Shown here piece after piece: positions 3,301 to 7,946 of a stretch of DNA of 7,946 bases. The DNA is taken from contig NZ_JAVRBM010000030.1 of the NCBI RefSeq assembly GCF_034531255.1, positions 1 through 7,946 on the forward strand. Direction: 5' to 3'. A program made the position numbers and the translations under genes. Source of the DNA: Nostoc sp. ChiQUE01b (GTDB taxonomy: Bacteria > Cyanobacteriota > Cyanobacteriia > Cyanobacteriales > Nostocaceae). The notes under the pieces are model-generated. The model was not told the DNA's origin and did not search any database. It worked only from the letters and a program-made list of their open reading frames with translations. Each line of letters begins with the position of its first letter. Positions within the stretch are counted from its first letter, which is position 1.

Positions 3301-4579
3301 TGAAGTTGTACGCGACTCAGACAGCACGATTGTGGGGTTACGCGGCACGGTTCAAGATATCACGGCAAGAAAACAGACAGAAGAAAAACTGTCCGAATCG
3401 GAAGAACGTTTACAAATGCTTTTAGCACGAGAACAAGCAGCACGGGAGTCTGCCGAAACCGCTAACCGCGTCAAAGACGAGTTTTTAGCCGTGCTGTCTC
3501 ATGAGTTGCGATCGCCCCTCAATCCCATTTTGGGTTGGTCAAAGCTGCTACAACAAGGCAACCTCGACGCGGCAAAAACGGCAAACGCGCTGGCCGTGAT
3601 CGCCCGCAATGCCCAACTGCAAGCGCAACTGATTGACGATCTGCTCGATATCTCGCGGATTCTGCGTGGCAAATTGAGTTTGAATCAGATGCCTGTTGAC
3701 TTGAATCTGGTGATTGCATCTGCCCTGGAAACGGTTCGCCTAGCTGCCGAAGCCAAGTCGTTGTACATTGAGACAACAGTTCTACCGAATATCAGAACCG
3801 TTACAGGTGATGCTGGACGATTGCAACAAGTGGTTTGGAATCTTCTTGCTAACGCAGTGAAGTTTACGCCACCAGGCGGACAAATCACCATCGCCTTGAC
3901 TCAAGGAGCAACTTATGCACAAATTCAAGTCATTGATACAGGTAAAGGTATTAATCCTGACTTTTTGCCCTACGTATTTGAGCATTTTCGCCAAGAAGAT
4001 GGAGCCACCACGCGGAAGTTTGGCGGACTGGGGTTAGGATTGGCGATCGCCCGGCAAATCGTCGAACTACATGGTGGAACTGTTGCAGTTGCTAGTCCAG
4101 GTGAAGGGCAGGGTGCCACCTTCACAGTCCAACTCCCACTTGCGCCTGTATCAAGTCCAACTTTGTCAAGAGCAGTTGACTCAGACTCAACGGATGACGA
4201 TTTGAGTGACATCCACATCTTAGTGGTGGATGATGAACCAGATTCCCGTGAGTTTGTGGCTTTTGTTCTAGAGCAAGCAGGCGCGATCGTCACCAATGTT
4301 GCATCGGGAATTGAGGCATTGCAAACCATCGATCAGTCCTTCGATCTCATCGTCAGCGATATTGGAATGCCAGAGATGGATGGCTATATGTTAATGCAAC
4401 AAATTCGGGCGCGATTGCCCGATCGCCAGATTCCAGCCATTGCTCTGACTGCCTACGCCGGAGAATTTGATCGCCAGCAGGCATTAGCCGCAGGGTTTCA
4501 ACGGCATCTAGCGAAACCGATTGAGCCAGAGATGCTTGTACAAACGATTGTGAGTTTAATTAACCTGAGTTCTATGTAA
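308..4579 (+). CDS. Multidomain hybrid sensor histidine kinase with two complete transmitter-receiver modules: N-terminal PAS-like sensor, GAF, HisKA, HATPase_c, REC, PAS, PAS, HisKA, HATPase_c, REC
   Basis: A single uninterrupted ORF; the track gives 287-4579 starting at GTG. I prefer ATG 308, which is preceded by AAGGAA at 297-302 and overlaps the remnant stop as ATGA. N-terminal motifs WSQTPLG...WTQSLRSTLSICLNSRFPIAIYWG...YNDAWRPIVGDKHPWALG are typical of the PAS-like sensor that precedes GAF in bacterial kinases. Module 1: H-box SHEFRTPL (His codon 1382-1384), N-box NLMSNAFKFT, G1 DTGVGI (about 1820), G2 GSGIGL, and REC with DDN, TDVMMP (Asp 2369-2371) and IKPF. Module 2: two PAS-like segments (about 2640-2950 and 3030-3370), H-box SHELRSPL (His 3500-3502), N-box NLLANAVKFT, G1 DTGKGI (3935-3952), G2 GGLGLGL, and REC with VDDEPD, SDIGMP (Asp 4358-4360) and AKPI. 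Stop TAA at 4577-4579. Confidence 0.93.
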   Translation: MTVDRSTAEQLFAGKGEMAMRMRSHDWSQTPLGAVETWTQSLRSTLSICLNSRFPIAIYWGQDCLLLYNDAWRPIVGDKHPWALGRPAREVWSEIWDDIGPELAGVLATGEGTFHNDELLSMHRFGYTEECFFEYTFNPIQGQGGVIDGVFNVVSETTYRVLNDRRARLLREVAAKTGTTKTAEELCALMVEAFKSDPFDIPFAFLYLIDQDGKQARLCGSTDAPDSSIIPAVVDLTAANDIDGWVIALAARTGKSQAINDLESRFGRLPGSPWSEPPQSAMVLPIAATGQGKVTGVLVVVASPRRRLDDNYRDFFDQVAGQMATALANVRAYEEERQRAEALAELDRAKTVFFSNISHEFRTPLTLMLSPLEALANTLDERLQFNEREQLQLVQRNGLRLQKLVNTLLDFSRIEAGRVQAMYEPTDLAAFTSDLASVFRSLIEQAGLQLRVECPALPEPVYVDRDMWEKIVLNLMSNAFKFTFTGSITVTLQAIADRVELQVADTGVGIPPEELPRLFERFHRVNGAKSRTYEGSGIGLALVQELVKLHGGSIRVTSVLDRGTTFTVAIPFGSTHLPSDQIQTPRTLQSTALGTAPFVEEASRWLSTESSEFSVLSSELNTESSIQNSKFKTQNSLCARILLADDNADMREYVTRLLSPYYEVEAVSDGMAAWKAITERAVDLVLTDVMMPRLDGFGLLRQLREHPQTQEISIILLSARAGEEARIEGLAAGADDYLIKPFSARELLAKVEATLKLTQLRREAMQREQVLRLEAETAQQKVETILSSISDAFVVLDRDWNFTYVNDRYCEIVDMEREALLGQNVWELFADAAGSEAHIQFQQVLREQISVQFEWLFPTWNRWFEYRVYPSPDGLTIFLSEITDAKHREAERKQAEEQLRQREAELTEAQRIGKIGSWYWDAKTDITTGSDQLLRIYGFDPKRDTMPNFAAQDGWLYPHASWQRINTAVQQALKTGVGYELDVQAFCNGTPIWITTRCEVVRDSDSTIVGLRGTVQDITARKQTEEKLSESEERLQMLLAREQAARESAETANRVKDEFLAVLSHELRSPLNPILGWSKLLQQGNLDAAKTANALAVIARNAQLQAQLIDDLLDISRILRGKLSLNQMPVDLNLVIASALETVRLAAEAKSLYIETTVLPNIRTVTGDAGRLQQVVWNLLANAVKFTPPGGQITIALTQGATYAQIQVIDTGKGINPDFLPYVFEHFRQEDGATTRKFGGLGLGLAIARQIVELHGGTVAVASPGEGQGATFTVQLPLAPVSSPTLSRAVDSDSTDDDLSDIHILVVDDEPDSREFVAFVLEQAGAIVTNVASGIEALQTIDQSFDLIVSDIGMPEMDGYMLMQQIRARLPDRQIPAIALTAYAGEFDRQQALAAGFQRHLAKPIEPEMLVQTIVSLINLSSM
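2131..2217. repeat. Intragenic palindromic heptamer-repeat element (STRR-like hairpin repeat), 87 nt, in frame within the kinase linker
   Basis: The left arm 2131-2166 is AGAGAGTTCTGAGTTCTCAGTTTTGAGTTCTGAGTT, tandem heptamers of form GAGTTCT/CAGTTTT. The right arm 2182-2217 is AATTCAAAACTCAAAATTCAAAACTCAAAACTCTCT. The reverse complement of the right arm matches the left arm at 30/36 positions by hand alignment, and 2 of the mismatches would be G-U pairs in RNA. The loop is 15 nt. The element translates to the low-complexity segment SEFSVLSSELNTESSIQNSKFKTQNS between HATPase_c and REC1. Confidence 0.75.
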
Positions 4580-4710
4580 TGAATATGCTAAATTAATAGC
4601 TAAAATGCCAGTTTAGCACTGATTTTGATGTCAGTAAATAAGACTTTGCTGGGGGCGTTTTGGTGTTAACTGAACAGTTGATGAATTAACTGTCTCAAAT
4701 ACAATTCCTT

Positions 4711-5094
4711 TCACCTGATGAGATTCACTGCAATACTCAAATCCAGTTTTTTCCAAACCTTATCTGCTGTAAACACTGGAGCTTGCAGAATAATTCCCAG
4801 GGCTAAACAGGCGCGGTCGCCCAATGATAAGCCATGCTGCTGAGTTTGACCGTTCAAGTTAGCCGCGATATCTGCTTGCTCTTTATTAAAGGGGATTGCG
4901 TCAATATCCAACCAGCGCAAAATCTTTTGAGACGTGAATTGGTCATACTTTCTTTGTAGAACCGTTGATGTTTCGCAAAGGTTGACCATAGATATAACCG
5001 CATCAGCCAAAACACTTTTGACAACATCTTTGCCCGGTTCTTCGTGAATAAGCGTCAATAGCGCCGAGGCATCAAGAACCGCTTTGTTCTTCAC
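4711..5094 (-). CDS. vapC: PIN-domain ribonuclease toxin, VapC family
   Basis: The minus-strand ORF shows PIN hallmarks: N-terminal VLDASALL (first acidic residue), HEEPG, LSLGDRACLALG and FTADKVW. The track starts it at 5121, which is a TTG codon. GTG at 5094-5092 is preceded by AGGAG with a 7-nt spacer (reverse complement of 5095-5106) and gives MKNKAVLDASALL, 127 aa. This start overlaps the antitoxin 3' end by 23 nt. Stop at 4711-4713. Confidence 0.85.
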   Translation of the reverse strand: MKNKAVLDASALLTLIHEEPGKDVVKSVLADAVISMVNLCETSTVLQRKYDQFTSQKILRWLDIDAIPFNKEQADIAANLNGQTQQHGLSLGDRACLALGIILQAPVFTADKVWKKLDLSIAVNLIR

Positions 5095-5335
5095 GGGAAA
5101 ACTCCTCTCGTCTAGATGCAATTAATTCTTCGCTCCAACTAGAGCGATCGCCAGCACTAAGGGAGCGAACCAGATTATGTACCATCTCCAGCTTCTGAAA
5201 TTGAGACAAAATTTTCACTTCACCATTTTCTTCAGAAATGGTTATTGTATCGCCTTCGGCTATATGCAAATTCTTACGCAAAGATGCAGGCAGTGTTATT
5301 CTTCCCCCACTCAGTACATCTACCTTATATTCCAT
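5072..5335 (-). CDS. vapB: AbrB/SpoVT (MazE-like swapped-hairpin) antitoxin, VapB-type
   Basis: An 87-aa ORF lying immediately upstream of the PIN gene and overlapping it. The N-terminus, GGRITLPASLRKNLHIAEGDTITI, is the typical SpoVT/AbrB DNA-binding motif. The C-terminal half is acidic and Ser-rich, consistent with a toxin-binding tail. ATG at 5335-5333. Confidence 0.8.
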   Translation of the reverse strand: MEYKVDVLSGGRITLPASLRKNLHIAEGDTITISEENGEVKILSQFQKLEMVHNLVRSLSAGDRSSWSEELIASRREEFSREEQSGS

Positions 5336-5352
5336 ATATATACTTTCATCAC

Positions 5353-5379
5353 CATATTGATTAAAAGTACATCAATATG
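5353..5379 (-). promoter_or_regulatory. Candidate VapB/VapBC operator: perfect 9-bp inverted repeat upstream of vapB
   Basis: CATATTGAT (5353-5361), a 9-nt spacer TAAAAGTAC, then ATCAATATG (5371-5379). It lies 18-44 nt upstream of the vapB ATG in AT-rich DNA. TA operons are usually autoregulated through palindromes that overlap their promoter. Confidence 0.35.
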
Positions 5380-5708
5380 CTTTAACACTCAATTAAAAAA
5401 TAGGCATATTTAAATAGATGTGCATTTTTTATTTAGAGTGCGTACAAATAATGTTTCTATTCCCTATCCCTATCAAAAAAAGGTCGTTTTTTAATAGGGG
5501 ATTTTACGTCTTTTTAACAATGGCTGGGGCGACTTCTGGATTGGCTTTTACCATACCCGTTTTTTGACAGGGTAAACTTGCCCCAAAGCGGGGTTTCTAC
5601 CATATTTCGGTTATAAGTTGGGTAAAAGCGCAGTCAGGCTAACGGCTCAAATCAGCGACGGCAGATCACCTCGGACTCTGCCCTAACAGCTAGAGTCCGT
5701 CCGCTGCA

Positions 5709-5737
5709 TTTAAATTGCTAGCCCTTTGCTGTATACT
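5709..5737 (+). promoter_or_regulatory. Possible sigma70-type promoter for the caspase-like/NB-ARC locus
   Basis: TTTAAA (5709-5714), a 17-nt spacer, then TATACT (5732-5737), about 28 nt upstream of ATG 5765. This is a motif match only. No clear Shine-Dalgarno sequence precedes the ATG. Confidence 0.25.
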
Positions 5738-5764
5738 TGAAAGCAGCTACTCCCAACGTCAGCA

Positions 5765-6358
5765 ATGACCATCAAACCCCAAAAAATTTTGATTTTGGCA
5801 GCAAATCCTAAGCAGACAGTACGTTTGCGTCTCGATGAAGAATTGCGTGACATTAAGGAAGGTTTGCAAAGGGCGCAAAATCGGGAGAATTTTGATCTGC
5901 GGTATGATTTGGCAGTACGTCCGAGGGATATTCGCCGCGCTATTTTGGATTATCGACCAAACATTATCCACTTTTCTGGGCATGGTGCAGGAGTACAAGG
6001 ATTAGCTTTTGAAGATGAAATTGGAAACGAACAGCTAGTTACGGGAGAAGCATTAGCTGGACTTTTTGGACAGTTTTCTAATCAAGTAGAATGTGTGCTG
6101 TTGAATGCTTGCTACTCCCAAGTCCAAGCAAAAGCGATCGCCCAACACATCAATTATGTGATTGGCATGAACGATCAAATCCAAGATGAAGCGGCAATTG
6201 AATTTGTTGTGGGATTTTACGATGCACTTCTGGCTTACAATCCCCAATATGATCAAAGTTCGCCTGTAGAGTTTGCTTTTAATATTGCCAAGAATGCGAT
6301 TATGTTAGCTGGCGTGTCTGGCGAGTCGATTCCTGAAATTAAAAAAAAACTAATCTAA
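5765..6358 (+). CDS. Minimal caspase-fold (CHAT-type) cysteine-protease-like domain protein; probably the N-terminal effector module of the downstream STAND NTPase
   Basis: A 197-aa ORF. The pattern is KILILAANP..LRLDEELRDI (first strand and helix), then IIHFSGHG (His73, codon 5981-5983), GLAFEDE, and ECVLLNACYS (Cys116, codon 6110-6112). This spacing and context match the His-Cys dyad of CHAT/caspase-hemoglobinase-fold peptidases (HxxGHG ... hhLxACxS). The ORF ends IPEIKKKLI-stop, with KKK encoded by the A9 run. Confidence 0.7.
   Translation: MTIKPQKILILAANPKQTVRLRLDEELRDIKEGLQRAQNRENFDLRYDLAVRPRDIRRAILDYRPNIIHFSGHGAGVQGLAFEDEIGNEQLVTGEALAGLFGQFSNQVECVLLNACYSQVQAKAIAQHINYVIGMNDQIQDEAAIEFVVGFYDALLAYNPQYDQSSPVEFAFNIAKNAIMLAGVSGESIPEIKKKLI
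6341..6349 (+). other. A9 homopolymer at the frame junction between the caspase-like ORF and the NB-ARC ORF: candidate slippery or phase-variable site
   Basis: The sequence is gaaatt AAAAAAAAA ctaatctaa. In frame 2 it reads E I K K K L I stop (6356-6358). Frame 1 is open from 6343 onward, reading KKTNLTPHHLPLGNLTNVPELPPHFLLRPQQL. Moving back 1 nt after the AAA codon at 6347-6349, or adding one A, joins the two ORFs. Confidence 0.9.
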
Positions 6359-7946
6359 CTCCCCATCATCTACCTTTAGGAAATCTTACCAATGTCCCAG
6401 AATTACCACCGCACTTTTTACTCCGTCCCCAACAACTTACGCCCTTAAAACACAAGGTATTGTTGCTAACAAAACAACCTGTGGGGATTACAGGGAAAAG
6501 CCGCCGTGTTGGTGTGCAAGGAATGGGCGGAATTGGTAAAACAGTCTTAGCTACAGCACTGGCGCGGGATGAAGAGGTCAGAAAGGCGTTTCCTGATGGG
6601 GTGTTTTGGGTAACATTTGGACAAACACCCCAGATTTTGACTTGGCAATCCTATCTTGCTCAGGCGTTAGGCGACTTGCAAGCGGCCTTTACCGAGATTG
6701 GATTGGCGAAAGCACGGTTGCGAGAGCTGTTTGCAGATAAAGCTTGCTTGCTGATTTTGGATGATATTTGGCGTTTGGATGATGCGACGGCGTTTGATGT
6801 GTTAGGAGAACGGTGTCAAATGTTAGTTACCACCCGTAATGTAGCAATAGTTACAGGGATGGGAGGGGAAGAATATCAGCTTGAGGTCTTAGATGCACAA
6901 CAGGCGTTAGCACTTTTGGCAGATTGGGCAAATCAACCGCAGATCATTGACCCCACACAGCAAAATGATGTCATCTTGCAGGTAGCGCGGGAATGTGGAT
7001 ATTTGCCCTTAGCATTGGCGATGGTAGGGGCGATGATGCGCTTTAAACCGCCAAATCGCTGGCACAATATTTTAGAAAAACTACGTAGTGCTGATTTAGA
7101 GAAAATCAAACAACAGTTTCCCGATTATCCTTATCCAAATTTACTCAAGGCAATTCAGGTGAGTGTGGAGGATATGTCTGAGAATTATCAACAGCGATAT
7201 TTAGATTTTGCGGTCTTTCCTGAAGATACACCAATACCAGAAGCAGTATTGCAGACTTTTTGGCAACCGTTGGGGTTAGATGAGTTTGATAGCCAAGATG
7301 TGATTGATGAATTAGTGAGTAAATCTCTGGCTTTGCGGGATGAAGCGGGAAGTTTGCGCTTGCATGACTTGCAGTTTGATTATGTCAGAAAGCAGCACGC
7401 CACCTTAGTAACCGAAAGTGGAAGGATAGGTTTTTTGCACAATCGTCTATTAAATGCCTATAGTGAAAAATACTCTGAAGGTTGGCATAGTTTAGAAAAT
7501 GACGGTTATATCTATCAAAATTTAGCCTATCACTTGCAGACAGGGGGAAGGGAAACAGAATTACAACAACTGCTGTGTGATTTTCGCTGGTTGCAGGCGA
7601 AGTTGGAGAACACTAATGTTAATGGTTTGATAGCAGATTATGATTTTTTGCCTGAAGATGAGAATTTACAGTTAATTCAAGGTGCATTGCGACTGTCGGC
7701 ACATTTTTTAAATCAAGATAAACAGCAATTACCAGGGCAATTATTAGGGCGGTTGCTGGGTTTTGAAAGAGAAGAAATTCAAAGATTGTTAACGCAGGCG
7801 CAGCAATGCAAAACCCCTTCCTTGCTTCCCCAAACAGCCAGCTTGGCTCCCCCTGGCGGTTCCTTAGTACGTACCCTAGCAGGTCATAGCGACTCGGTAA
7901 ACGCAGTTGCCCTCACCCCAGATGGTCAGTACGTAATTTCAGGTTC
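6343..7946 (+). CDS. NB-ARC (Apaf-1/R-protein type) STAND NTPase with helical sensor-linker and the start of a WD40 repeat array; 3'-partial and lacking its own canonical start
   Basis: I translated frame 1 by hand. There is no stop from 6343 to the window end (more than 530 codons). The ORF is not in the supplied track because it has no ATG start and runs off the window. Motifs: Walker A GMGGIGKT (6520-6543), Walker B LLILDDIW (6748-6771), LVTTRN (6823-6840), GYLPLAL (6997-7017), an MHD-like LHD (7360-7368), then an Apaf-1-like helical region. The first WD40 repeat is SLVRTLAGHSDSVNAVALTPDGQYVISGS (7861-7946). The only in-frame start-like codons before the P-loop are TTG 6460/6463 and GTG 6481. 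These would remove the conserved pre-P-loop segment PHFLLRPQQLTPLKHKVL. Confidence 0.85.

Follow-up and report, generated by a model that had tools for sequence, protein, structure and literature searches.

A candidate −1 recoding junction between a CHAT protease and an Apaf-1-like NB-ARC–WD40 protein in Nostoc sp. ChiQUE01b

The 7,946-nucleotide (nt) stretch of Nostoc sp. ChiQUE01b DNA considered here (the window: positions 1 to 7,946 of contig NZ_JAVRBM010000030.1, forward strand) ends in two overlapping open reading frames (ORFs). One specifies a small protease of the CHAT type and the other a relative of human Apaf-1 with an NB-ARC nucleotide-binding domain and WD40 repeats. Though the two are in different frames, they probably make up the 5′ part of one functional gene that is expressed through recoding at a run of nine adenines (A9); its product would be a bacterial STAND protein of Apaf-1 type with an N-terminal CHAT effector. 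That recoding yields a CHAT–NB-ARC–WD40 fusion is likely from the comparative evidence given below. The domain architecture itself has already been described (PMC8195603; PMC13581612); what appears to be new is a −1 recoding junction between protease and switch, seemingly conserved family-wide and with two types of signal. A preliminary description of this DNA, made from its letters, identified the domains. It did not recognise the conserved recoding site at the frame break, which is the most interesting feature of the locus.

The zero-frame ORF extends on the + strand from 5765 to 6358, where TAA (6356–6358) terminates a stand-alone product of 197 amino acids (aa). The NB-ARC frame is −1 relative to it and is open on the same strand from 6343 to the end of the window at 7946, so that the two frames overlap by 16 nt. 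The preliminary description mentioned two ORFs and a fused translation of them; rather than being simply adjacent, the ORFs overlap in different frames at the A9 tract. In zero-frame codons the junction reads gaa att AAA AAA AAA cta atc TAA. The A9 tract (6341–6349, + strand), which is the proposed recoding site, contains the heptamer A_AAA_AAA, and the zero-frame stop is two codons past it. What follows in the −1 frame is a trans-frame linker (6349–6459, + strand; TNLTPHHLPLGNLTNVPELPPHFLLRPQQLTPLKHKV) without ATG, GTG or TTG, and the first possible start in the NB-ARC frame is a TTG at 6460, 19 codons ahead of the Walker A motif. Homology to Apaf-1, however, begins 66 nt ahead of that TTG, at nt 6394 (VPELPPHF), with the linker segment VPELPPHFLLRPQQL aligning with Apaf-1 VPQRPVVFVTRKKL, the first segment of its nucleotide-binding domain. 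Since this segment before the P-loop is homologous to Apaf-1 and no start precedes 6460, part of the NTPase domain is unreachable by normal initiation. The peptide TNLTPHHLPLGNLTNVPELPPHFLLR is encoded upstream of any start codon.

The arrangement is not peculiar to the window. Genomes were sampled at one per species, and 88 loci were searched by tblastn with both halves. Nearly all CHAT-to-NB-ARC junctions are of two kinds: 14 loci are fused in frame and approximately 38 have NB-ARC at −1, which is about 38 of the 40 that are not fused. Just two, L021 and L028, are in the +1 state, and in both this is due to 1-nt deletions beside the tract. A true two-gene arrangement, with a real spacer and an ATG of its own for the second gene, was found in one distant locus only (L061). 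The same gene pair is present in orthologous loci of Anabaenopsis, Mojavia and Tolypothrix, and several independent assemblies of the same loci have the same frame state.

The −1 junctions fall into three classes. In class A, to which the window belongs (17 distinct sequences), the site is AAA AAA AAA CYA ATY TAA and the zero-frame product is CHAT. Class B (10 sequences) has YTA AAA AAA AAC TAG and its zero-frame product is CHAT joined to bacterial Death-like domain 3 (CHAT-bDLD3); only joining of the frames gives the NB-ARC part of class B an adaptor copy. Class C (10 loci, in Leptothoe and in Leptolyngbya-like and Phormidium-like genomes) has CHAT-TIR as its zero-frame product, and its sites are either CTA AAA AAG TAG, the dnaX/IS911 heptamer plus a stop, or (A/C)C CCT TAG/TAA. 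Every class-C locus has a hairpin of 9–11 base pairs that starts 4–6 nt past the shift site. The stems differ by lineage, for instance GCCUCU…AGAGGC, GGUUCACUGUC…GACAGUGGACC and GGUUCUCUGC…GCGGAGAACC, and for most of them the z-score is about −2 to −3.8.

Long homopolymers are nearly confined to the junction. In 707 kb of locus DNA there are 46 A or T runs of at least 9, and 42 of these are at the CHAT–NB-ARC junction; three of the other four were inspected (L027, L048 and L082) and gave no sign of recoding. The A9 or A10 is in the same phase in the 17 class-A and 10 class-B sequences. All 27 use AAA for each of the three lysines that the tract encodes, versus 298 AAA to 121 AAG elsewhere in class-A genes. 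Some in-frame relatives (Brasilonema P0134, L010 and L037) have exactly the junction, KKKTNL, that is predicted for the trans-frame product. As several relatives are fused in frame, some of them at KKKTNL, the fusion is taken to be a functional protein in the CHAT–NB-ARC family. Among close relatives tract length ranges from A8 to A11, and some of these are in frame. [A contig of Nostoc sp. P8219, NZ_JBALEO010000035.1, carries a copy of the junction at each of its ends, one with A10 and in frame (L037) and the other with A9 and at −1 (L045), so both frame states occur within one assembled genome. In L040, from Tolypothrix sp. VBCCA 56010, positions 4001–6120 hold a 97%-identical copy of the gene that lacks the first 76 CHAT codons and whose NB-ARC–WD40 frame stops after about 1.5 WD40 repeats, either as a truncated allele or through an assembly break in the repeats.]

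Constraint on the linker was measured from the tract to the earliest potential start codon, by counting synonymous and nonsynonymous differences in each frame. (Upstream of the tract, indels made an ungapped count by codon position uninformative, and the per-frame count was used in its place.) For class-A codons with a single difference, the ratio of synonymous to nonsynonymous changes is 798:605 in the NB-ARC frame versus 215:1127 and 172:1062 in the other two; for class B it is 167:194 versus 68:343 and 71:304. These counts indicate that the linker, though start-less, evolves as coding sequence and does so in the NB-ARC frame only. It encodes a conserved peptide, …LGNLxNVPxLPPHFLPR…. Paralogous NB-ARC proteins whose N-terminal domains are of other kinds always have this peptide internally, in frame and downstream of a normal ATG.

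On the proposed scheme, default translation of 5765–6358 would give the free 197-aa CHAT protease, while in a fraction of events a −1 change of frame at the A9 tract would give a protein of CHAT, linker, NB-ARC, winged helix, HD2 and WD40 repeats, about 1300 aa long in complete orthologues. For the window, addition of one A by RNA polymerase is favoured, and/or the ribosome may slip −1 on A_AAA_AAA; in class C, classical −1 ribosomal frameshifting at the short motif plus hairpin would be responsible. An Rfam scan of the whole window matched no family, and no conserved RNA structure was found downstream of the A tract in class A or class B. The lack of downstream structure in these two classes fits a slippage type of mechanism, for which the homopolymer is all that is needed. 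Polymerase slippage is preferred for the window because at least nine A's are kept with no downstream structure, as in insertion elements. In Nostoc PCC 7120 there are insertion elements with A8–A10 for which transcriptional slippage has been proposed (PMC1088944).

The junction thus has counterparts among well-studied recoding sites. IS1/IS3 OrfA-OrfAB, dnaX tau/gamma and the A9 elements of Nostoc PCC 7120 (PMC1088944; PMC5009743) have A_AAA_AAG, A_AAA_AAC or A9 with a nearby zero-frame stop and, in the versions with a short motif, a downstream hairpin, and like the present family they make a short upstream product and a trans-frame fusion. The difference is in the kind of gene, which here is a cellular conflict gene of STAND/caspase type and not one for a transposase or a replication factor. 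The CHAT–NB-ARC family is not listed in the recoding literature searched (Atkins et al. 2016; Antonov et al. 2013). The main texts of Kaur et al. 2021 and of a 2026 paper have no mention of frameshifting for these genes, nor has that of Kaur et al. 2021 any of ‘slippage’. In the open-access literature searched there was no report of frameshifting in CHAT, NB-ARC or STAND genes, an absence that is not proof.

Several observations weigh against expression of a single gene through recoding. Class A, the window included, is without a stimulatory RNA structure of the kind expected 5–8 nt past a ribosomal shift site. A pure −1 ribosomal mechanism would not rescue the two +1 loci, L021 and L028; slippage that deletes one A would, and these loci speak weakly in favour of slippage unless they are simply defects. 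Tract length varies, and DNA-level phase variation could contribute. Because the loci share ancestry and the gene seems to be mobile, they amount to fewer independent events than their counts suggest. As to a defence or cell-death role, the NTPase part matches no PADLOC model, and the neighbourhoods of the gene are variable and not clear defence islands.

It is quite unlikely that the locus is an ordinary operon in which a CHAT gene is followed by an NB-ARC–WD40 gene starting at an internal TTG or GTG (6460, 6463 or 6481), with the two products associating non-covalently. Such an operon would agree with the way gene callers annotate the ORFs, as two, and with the literature, which currently treats these loci likewise; in Kaur et al. 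2021 the caspase-bDLD3 genes and their AP-ATPase partner are said to be ‘linked in an operon’. There is also, in most class-A loci, a GTG 12 codons ahead of the P-loop. However, the candidate starts are not conserved (in some loci it is a TTG, while elsewhere it is a GTG at +125, +152 or +158), and initiation at them would cut off the segment homologous to the beginning of the Apaf-1 nucleotide-binding domain, which is under purifying selection in the NB-ARC frame. The −1 relation in about 38 of the 40 non-fused loci, the slippery motifs, the class-C hairpins at a spacing typical of frameshifting and the relatives fused exactly at this junction all speak against two genes. Termination followed by reinitiation at the zero-frame stop was also considered and was rejected, as there is no start codon nearby and the slippery motifs and hairpins are conserved.

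The differing tract lengths of close relatives bring in a further explanation, which is that the A tract changes between A9 and A10 during replication to give heritable split (off, or free-protease) and fused (on) states with no recoding. In-frame alleles have arisen by different small indels at or beside the tract (A8 in L009, A11 in L010, A10 in L037 and an added T in L016), and A9 and A10 copies are together on the P8219 contig. A reversible switch would, in our expectation, leave a mixture of states, but about 27 of the 33 class-A and class-B loci are at −1, and where a strain has been assembled more than once, independently, the assemblies concur. Class C, moreover, maintains −1 with just A6 or C3–4 plus the hairpin, and replication slippage works poorly on runs of this length. 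Switching of this kind as the whole explanation is therefore considered improbable, though it can coexist with recoding. Less probable still is that a once in-frame CHAT–NB-ARC–WD40 gene has been broken, by decay to a pseudogene or by sequencing error in the homopolymer. Homopolymers are error-prone, orthologues that are in frame exist at 91% identity (P0121) and the L040 gene looks truncated at both ends. Yet the same break is present in at least 17 species and in independent assemblies, finished NIES genomes among them. Both halves are open and their divergence is dominated by synonymous change; the synonymous sites of the tract are conserved, and class C has shift sites that are not homopolymers.

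The assignment of the module as CHAT, NB-ARC, winged helix, HD2 and WD40 is close to certain. For the 197-aa ORF the Pfam CHAT match (PF12770) has E=3.3e-10 and 40.3 bits, versus a cutoff of 24, over profile positions 102–252 of 289, and among PADLOC profiles the ORF matches ‘chat’ (4e-18) and SAVED_CHAT (1e-7). The motif HFSGHG is at residues 69–74, with the codon of His73 at 5981–5983, and LLNACYS is at residues 112–118, with that of Cys116 at 6110–6112; both His73 and Cys116 are invariant in an alignment of 56 homologues. The AlphaFold model of the protein made from that alignment (pLDDT 88.6, pTM 0.87) has the histidine and the cysteine each in a loop right behind a core strand, 67–71 and 110–114 respectively. 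The top match of the model in a Foldseek search of PDB is the SAVED-CHAT protease filament 8tl0 (E=6e-15, TM 0.82, 27–28% identity), followed by caspases-4, -9 and -11 and MALT1 at E of about 1e-4 to 1e-5. The phmmer match to 8tl0 is 1.5e-16, and in it the dyad is aligned with HFIGHG and VLNACC. On this sequence and model evidence the ORF at 5765–6358 appears to encode a caspase-fold peptidase of the CHAT branch, with proteolysis as its predicted activity. A caspase- or CHAT-type domain with a His73/Cys116 dyad had been claimed in the preliminary description, and the Pfam match, the invariance of the dyad and the caspase-like fold uphold the claim. The further remark that the effector is unusually small for CHAT does not hold, as its size is that of the SAVED-CHAT protease domain (8tl0 residues 285–466). 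Each of its closest homologues (81–97% identity) likewise stands alone, with a length of about 197 aa, and they come from many genera. By Pfam the 197-aa product is CHAT only, with no EAD or bDLD adaptor domain. [Frameshift linkage between every short-CHAT effector and its partner was considered as a general rule but rejected, since a CHAT-EAD1 gene has a separate EAD1-CHASE2 partner. In L089, positions 5001–7689 hold this short-CHAT-EAD1 gene and the separate EAD1-CHASE2 gene, which has its own start behind a 146-nt spacer. These are two ordinary adaptor-paired genes, in contrast to the frameshift-joined NB-ARC loci.]

In the second frame the NB-ARC domain (6505–7173, + strand; Pfam PF00931, E=2.6e-34) has its Walker A motif, GMGGIGKT, at 6520–6543. 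Walker B (LLILDDIW), LVTTRN (TTR/sensor), GYLPLAL (GxP) and the MHD-type LHD can be read directly in this frame, aligned to Apaf-1. Human Apaf-1 (1z6t) is matched at E=7e-42, with about 450 of its residues aligned. Next come an Apaf-1-like winged helix that includes the LHD motif (7186–7383, + strand; Pfam PF21296, E=3.6e-9, and alignment to Apaf-1), the Apaf-1 helical domain HD2 (7435–7713, + strand; Pfam APAF1_C PF17908, E=9.1e-14) and the first WD40 blade (7858–7946, + strand; Pfam WD40, E=2.7e-5), the gene continuing past the end of the window. As the end of the window cuts the repeat short, the WD40 match scores 25 bits, slightly below the cutoff of 27. Both the motif set with its first blade and the overall likeness to Apaf-1, of protease, NB-ARC switch and WD40 sensor, had been pointed out before, and profile searches, sequence and fold concur in them. 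In PADLOC-DB v2 no family matches the NB-ARC part at E≤1, and in NCBIfam it matches only other STAND/TPR families, all far below threshold. By sequence and by analogy the frame is read as an Apaf-1-type AP-ATPase, a STAND NTPase for which ligand- and nucleotide-dependent oligomerisation would be expected.

A complete orthologue, in Anabaenopsis circularis NIES-21 (L002), has a fused product of 1326 aa with about 15 near-identical WD40 repeats. It is probably because of such repeats that short-read contigs, the window among them, break in the first blade. [In L002 the counterpart of the part beyond the window, at 9500–11980, is this WD40 array, whose repeats are 42 aa long; it brings to mind WD40 sensors that diversify rapidly.]

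Among known systems the apoptosome of animals is close to this protein. The order of NB-ARC, winged helix, HD2 and WD40 is the same as in Apaf-1, with homology across all four, and the effector has a caspase fold, caspase-9 itself being among the Foldseek matches; clustering of a protease by a sensor-switch would be the common logic. Unlike Apaf-1, the window gene is without a CARD, its protease is of the CHAT branch and not a true caspase, and that protease is proposed to be attached covalently via recoding, whereas caspase-9 is separately encoded and recruited. The published cyanobacterial caspase/AP-ATPase proteins belong to the same protein family and to the same group of organisms. The caspase-bDLD3/AP-ATPase pairs of Kaur et al. 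2021 are the class-B relatives here, and their founding bDLD3 example, from Nostoc sp. T09, has the same source organism as class-B locus L034. Published accounts treat these proteins as single fusions or as the products of two operon genes; the window version lacks a Death-like adaptor. The antiviral STAND (Avs) proteins resemble the fusion in their three-part plan, with a STAND NTPase between the effector at the N-terminus and the repeat sensor at the C-terminus, and in their presumed activation by oligomerisation, but the NTPase here is of the AP-ATPase/NB-ARC clade, the sensor is WD40 rather than TPR-like, and no PADLOC model matches. The protease of type III CRISPR SAVED-CHAT is the closest in sequence and among solved structures and is equally compact. 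Its trigger is cyclic oligoadenylate. It is activated by oligomerisation and was solved as the activated filament (PDB 8tl0); it differs in having a SAVED sensor fused N-terminal to CHAT and in being without a STAND NTPase, a WD40 array or a frameshift.

The analysis shows which domains are present, how the frames are arranged, that this arrangement is conserved and that the linker is under coding constraint; which recoding mechanism operates, in what ratio the products are made, how they are activated and what they do are matters that we infer. In Apaf-1 and other STAND NTPases, binding of ligand to the sensor permits nucleotide-dependent oligomerisation. By analogy, ligand binding by the WD40 propellers would release autoinhibition, nucleotide-dependent oligomerisation would cluster the N-terminal CHAT domains and activate proteolysis, and a cell that is infected or under stress would in consequence stop growing or die. 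Free CHAT, being identical to the fused effector, could join the activated oligomer and amplify its output; alternatively, it may be a by-product of a throttle that keeps a dangerous full-length protein scarce. The protease of class B carries a Death-like domain and that of class C a TIR domain, and in each class the same module is at the N-terminus of the recoded sensor. Death-like and TIR domains are of types known for homotypic assembly. That the free products of these classes carry such domains suggests recruitment of free copies to the activated fusion, and on this analogy co-assembly of free and fused products is put forward tentatively. No less tentative is the wider proposal that one gene provides a minimal apoptosome and its caspase. 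The frameshift would set the ratio of an abundant free effector to a rare sensor-switch with the identical effector or adaptor, and the fusion, once triggered, would recruit free copies by CHAT–CHAT, death-fold or TIR–TIR contacts. Such recruitment would parallel, in bacteria, that of procaspase-9 by Apaf-1, with recoding taking the place of a second gene.

A defence or cell-death function is somewhat favoured, by analogy. The preliminary description had suggested abortive infection or programmed cell death, and that suggestion keeps its standing as one: the variable, toxin-antitoxin-rich or plasmid contexts fit such a role, and no PADLOC match of the NB-ARC part supports it. The neighbourhood is different in every orthologous locus examined, which is not the picture of a gene restricted to conserved housekeeping surroundings. 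Toxin-antitoxin genes often adjoin, and in Acaryochloris the gene is plasmid-borne. In the window a vapBC-type toxin-antitoxin pair lies on the − strand at 4711–5335, consisting of a PIN toxin (4711–5121; Pfam PIN, 1.9e-11) and an AbrB/MazE-fold antitoxin (5072–5335; MazE_antitoxin, 7e-7). Its presence, noted earlier, is thus confirmed, but in other genomes the pair does not accompany the gene, and it is context only. The earlier impression that the locus is more AT-rich than the kinase gene is also right, as its GC content is 0.38–0.48 versus 0.47–0.54 in that gene.

The only upstream sequence common to the orthologous loci is a conserved 5′ leader with a −10-like box (5730–5764, + strand; TGTATACTT); in an alignment of nine loci, identity starts about 35 nt ahead of the ATG. 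A promoter-like TTTAAA-17-TATACT is present at 5709–5737, though such matches are no more numerous than in shuffled sequence, and a scan of 4500–6500 for promoters and terminators gave counts that were not above those of shuffled sequence. Directly upstream of the 35-nt leader, several orthologous loci have short tandem heptamer-like repeats (GGGAGAT…, CCCCATG…, AATTCAA…). In L006 and L026 these are about 150–220 nt before the CHAT start, and they are also found in L024 and L035; they resemble the short tandemly repeated sequences of cyanobacteria. An upstream block of about 130 nt (5600–5725) is shared with Anabaenopsis NIES-21 only (L002, at about 7835–7960), among the orthologous loci. It has an inverted repeat (CGGACTCTGCC…AGAGTCCG) and no Rfam match, and could be a small mobile or regulatory element. 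At the other end of the window, positions 1–260 are a remnant of a second, paralogous histidine-kinase gene. Here nt 136–223 are 83% identical to 3911–3998, in the HATPase region of the large kinase, and nt 223–257 are 91% identical to 4494–4528, at the end of its receiver domain. Since these adjoining pieces match separated regions of the kinase, an internal stretch of about 500 nt is missing from the remnant, which is probably a decayed duplicate.

If the recoding is confirmed, a large, conserved family that is not of mobile elements would join the short list of cellular genes expressed by frameshifting or slippage. Annotation and modelling would change, since these loci are now called as a small ‘CHAT domain protein’ and an N-terminally truncated ‘NB-ARC protein’. 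The junction would also offer a testable route to the coupling of sensor and protease in the apoptosome's bacterial relatives, and the parallel use by sister lineages of a Death-like or TIR domain in this place would link recoding to the adaptor logic of eukaryotic cell death.

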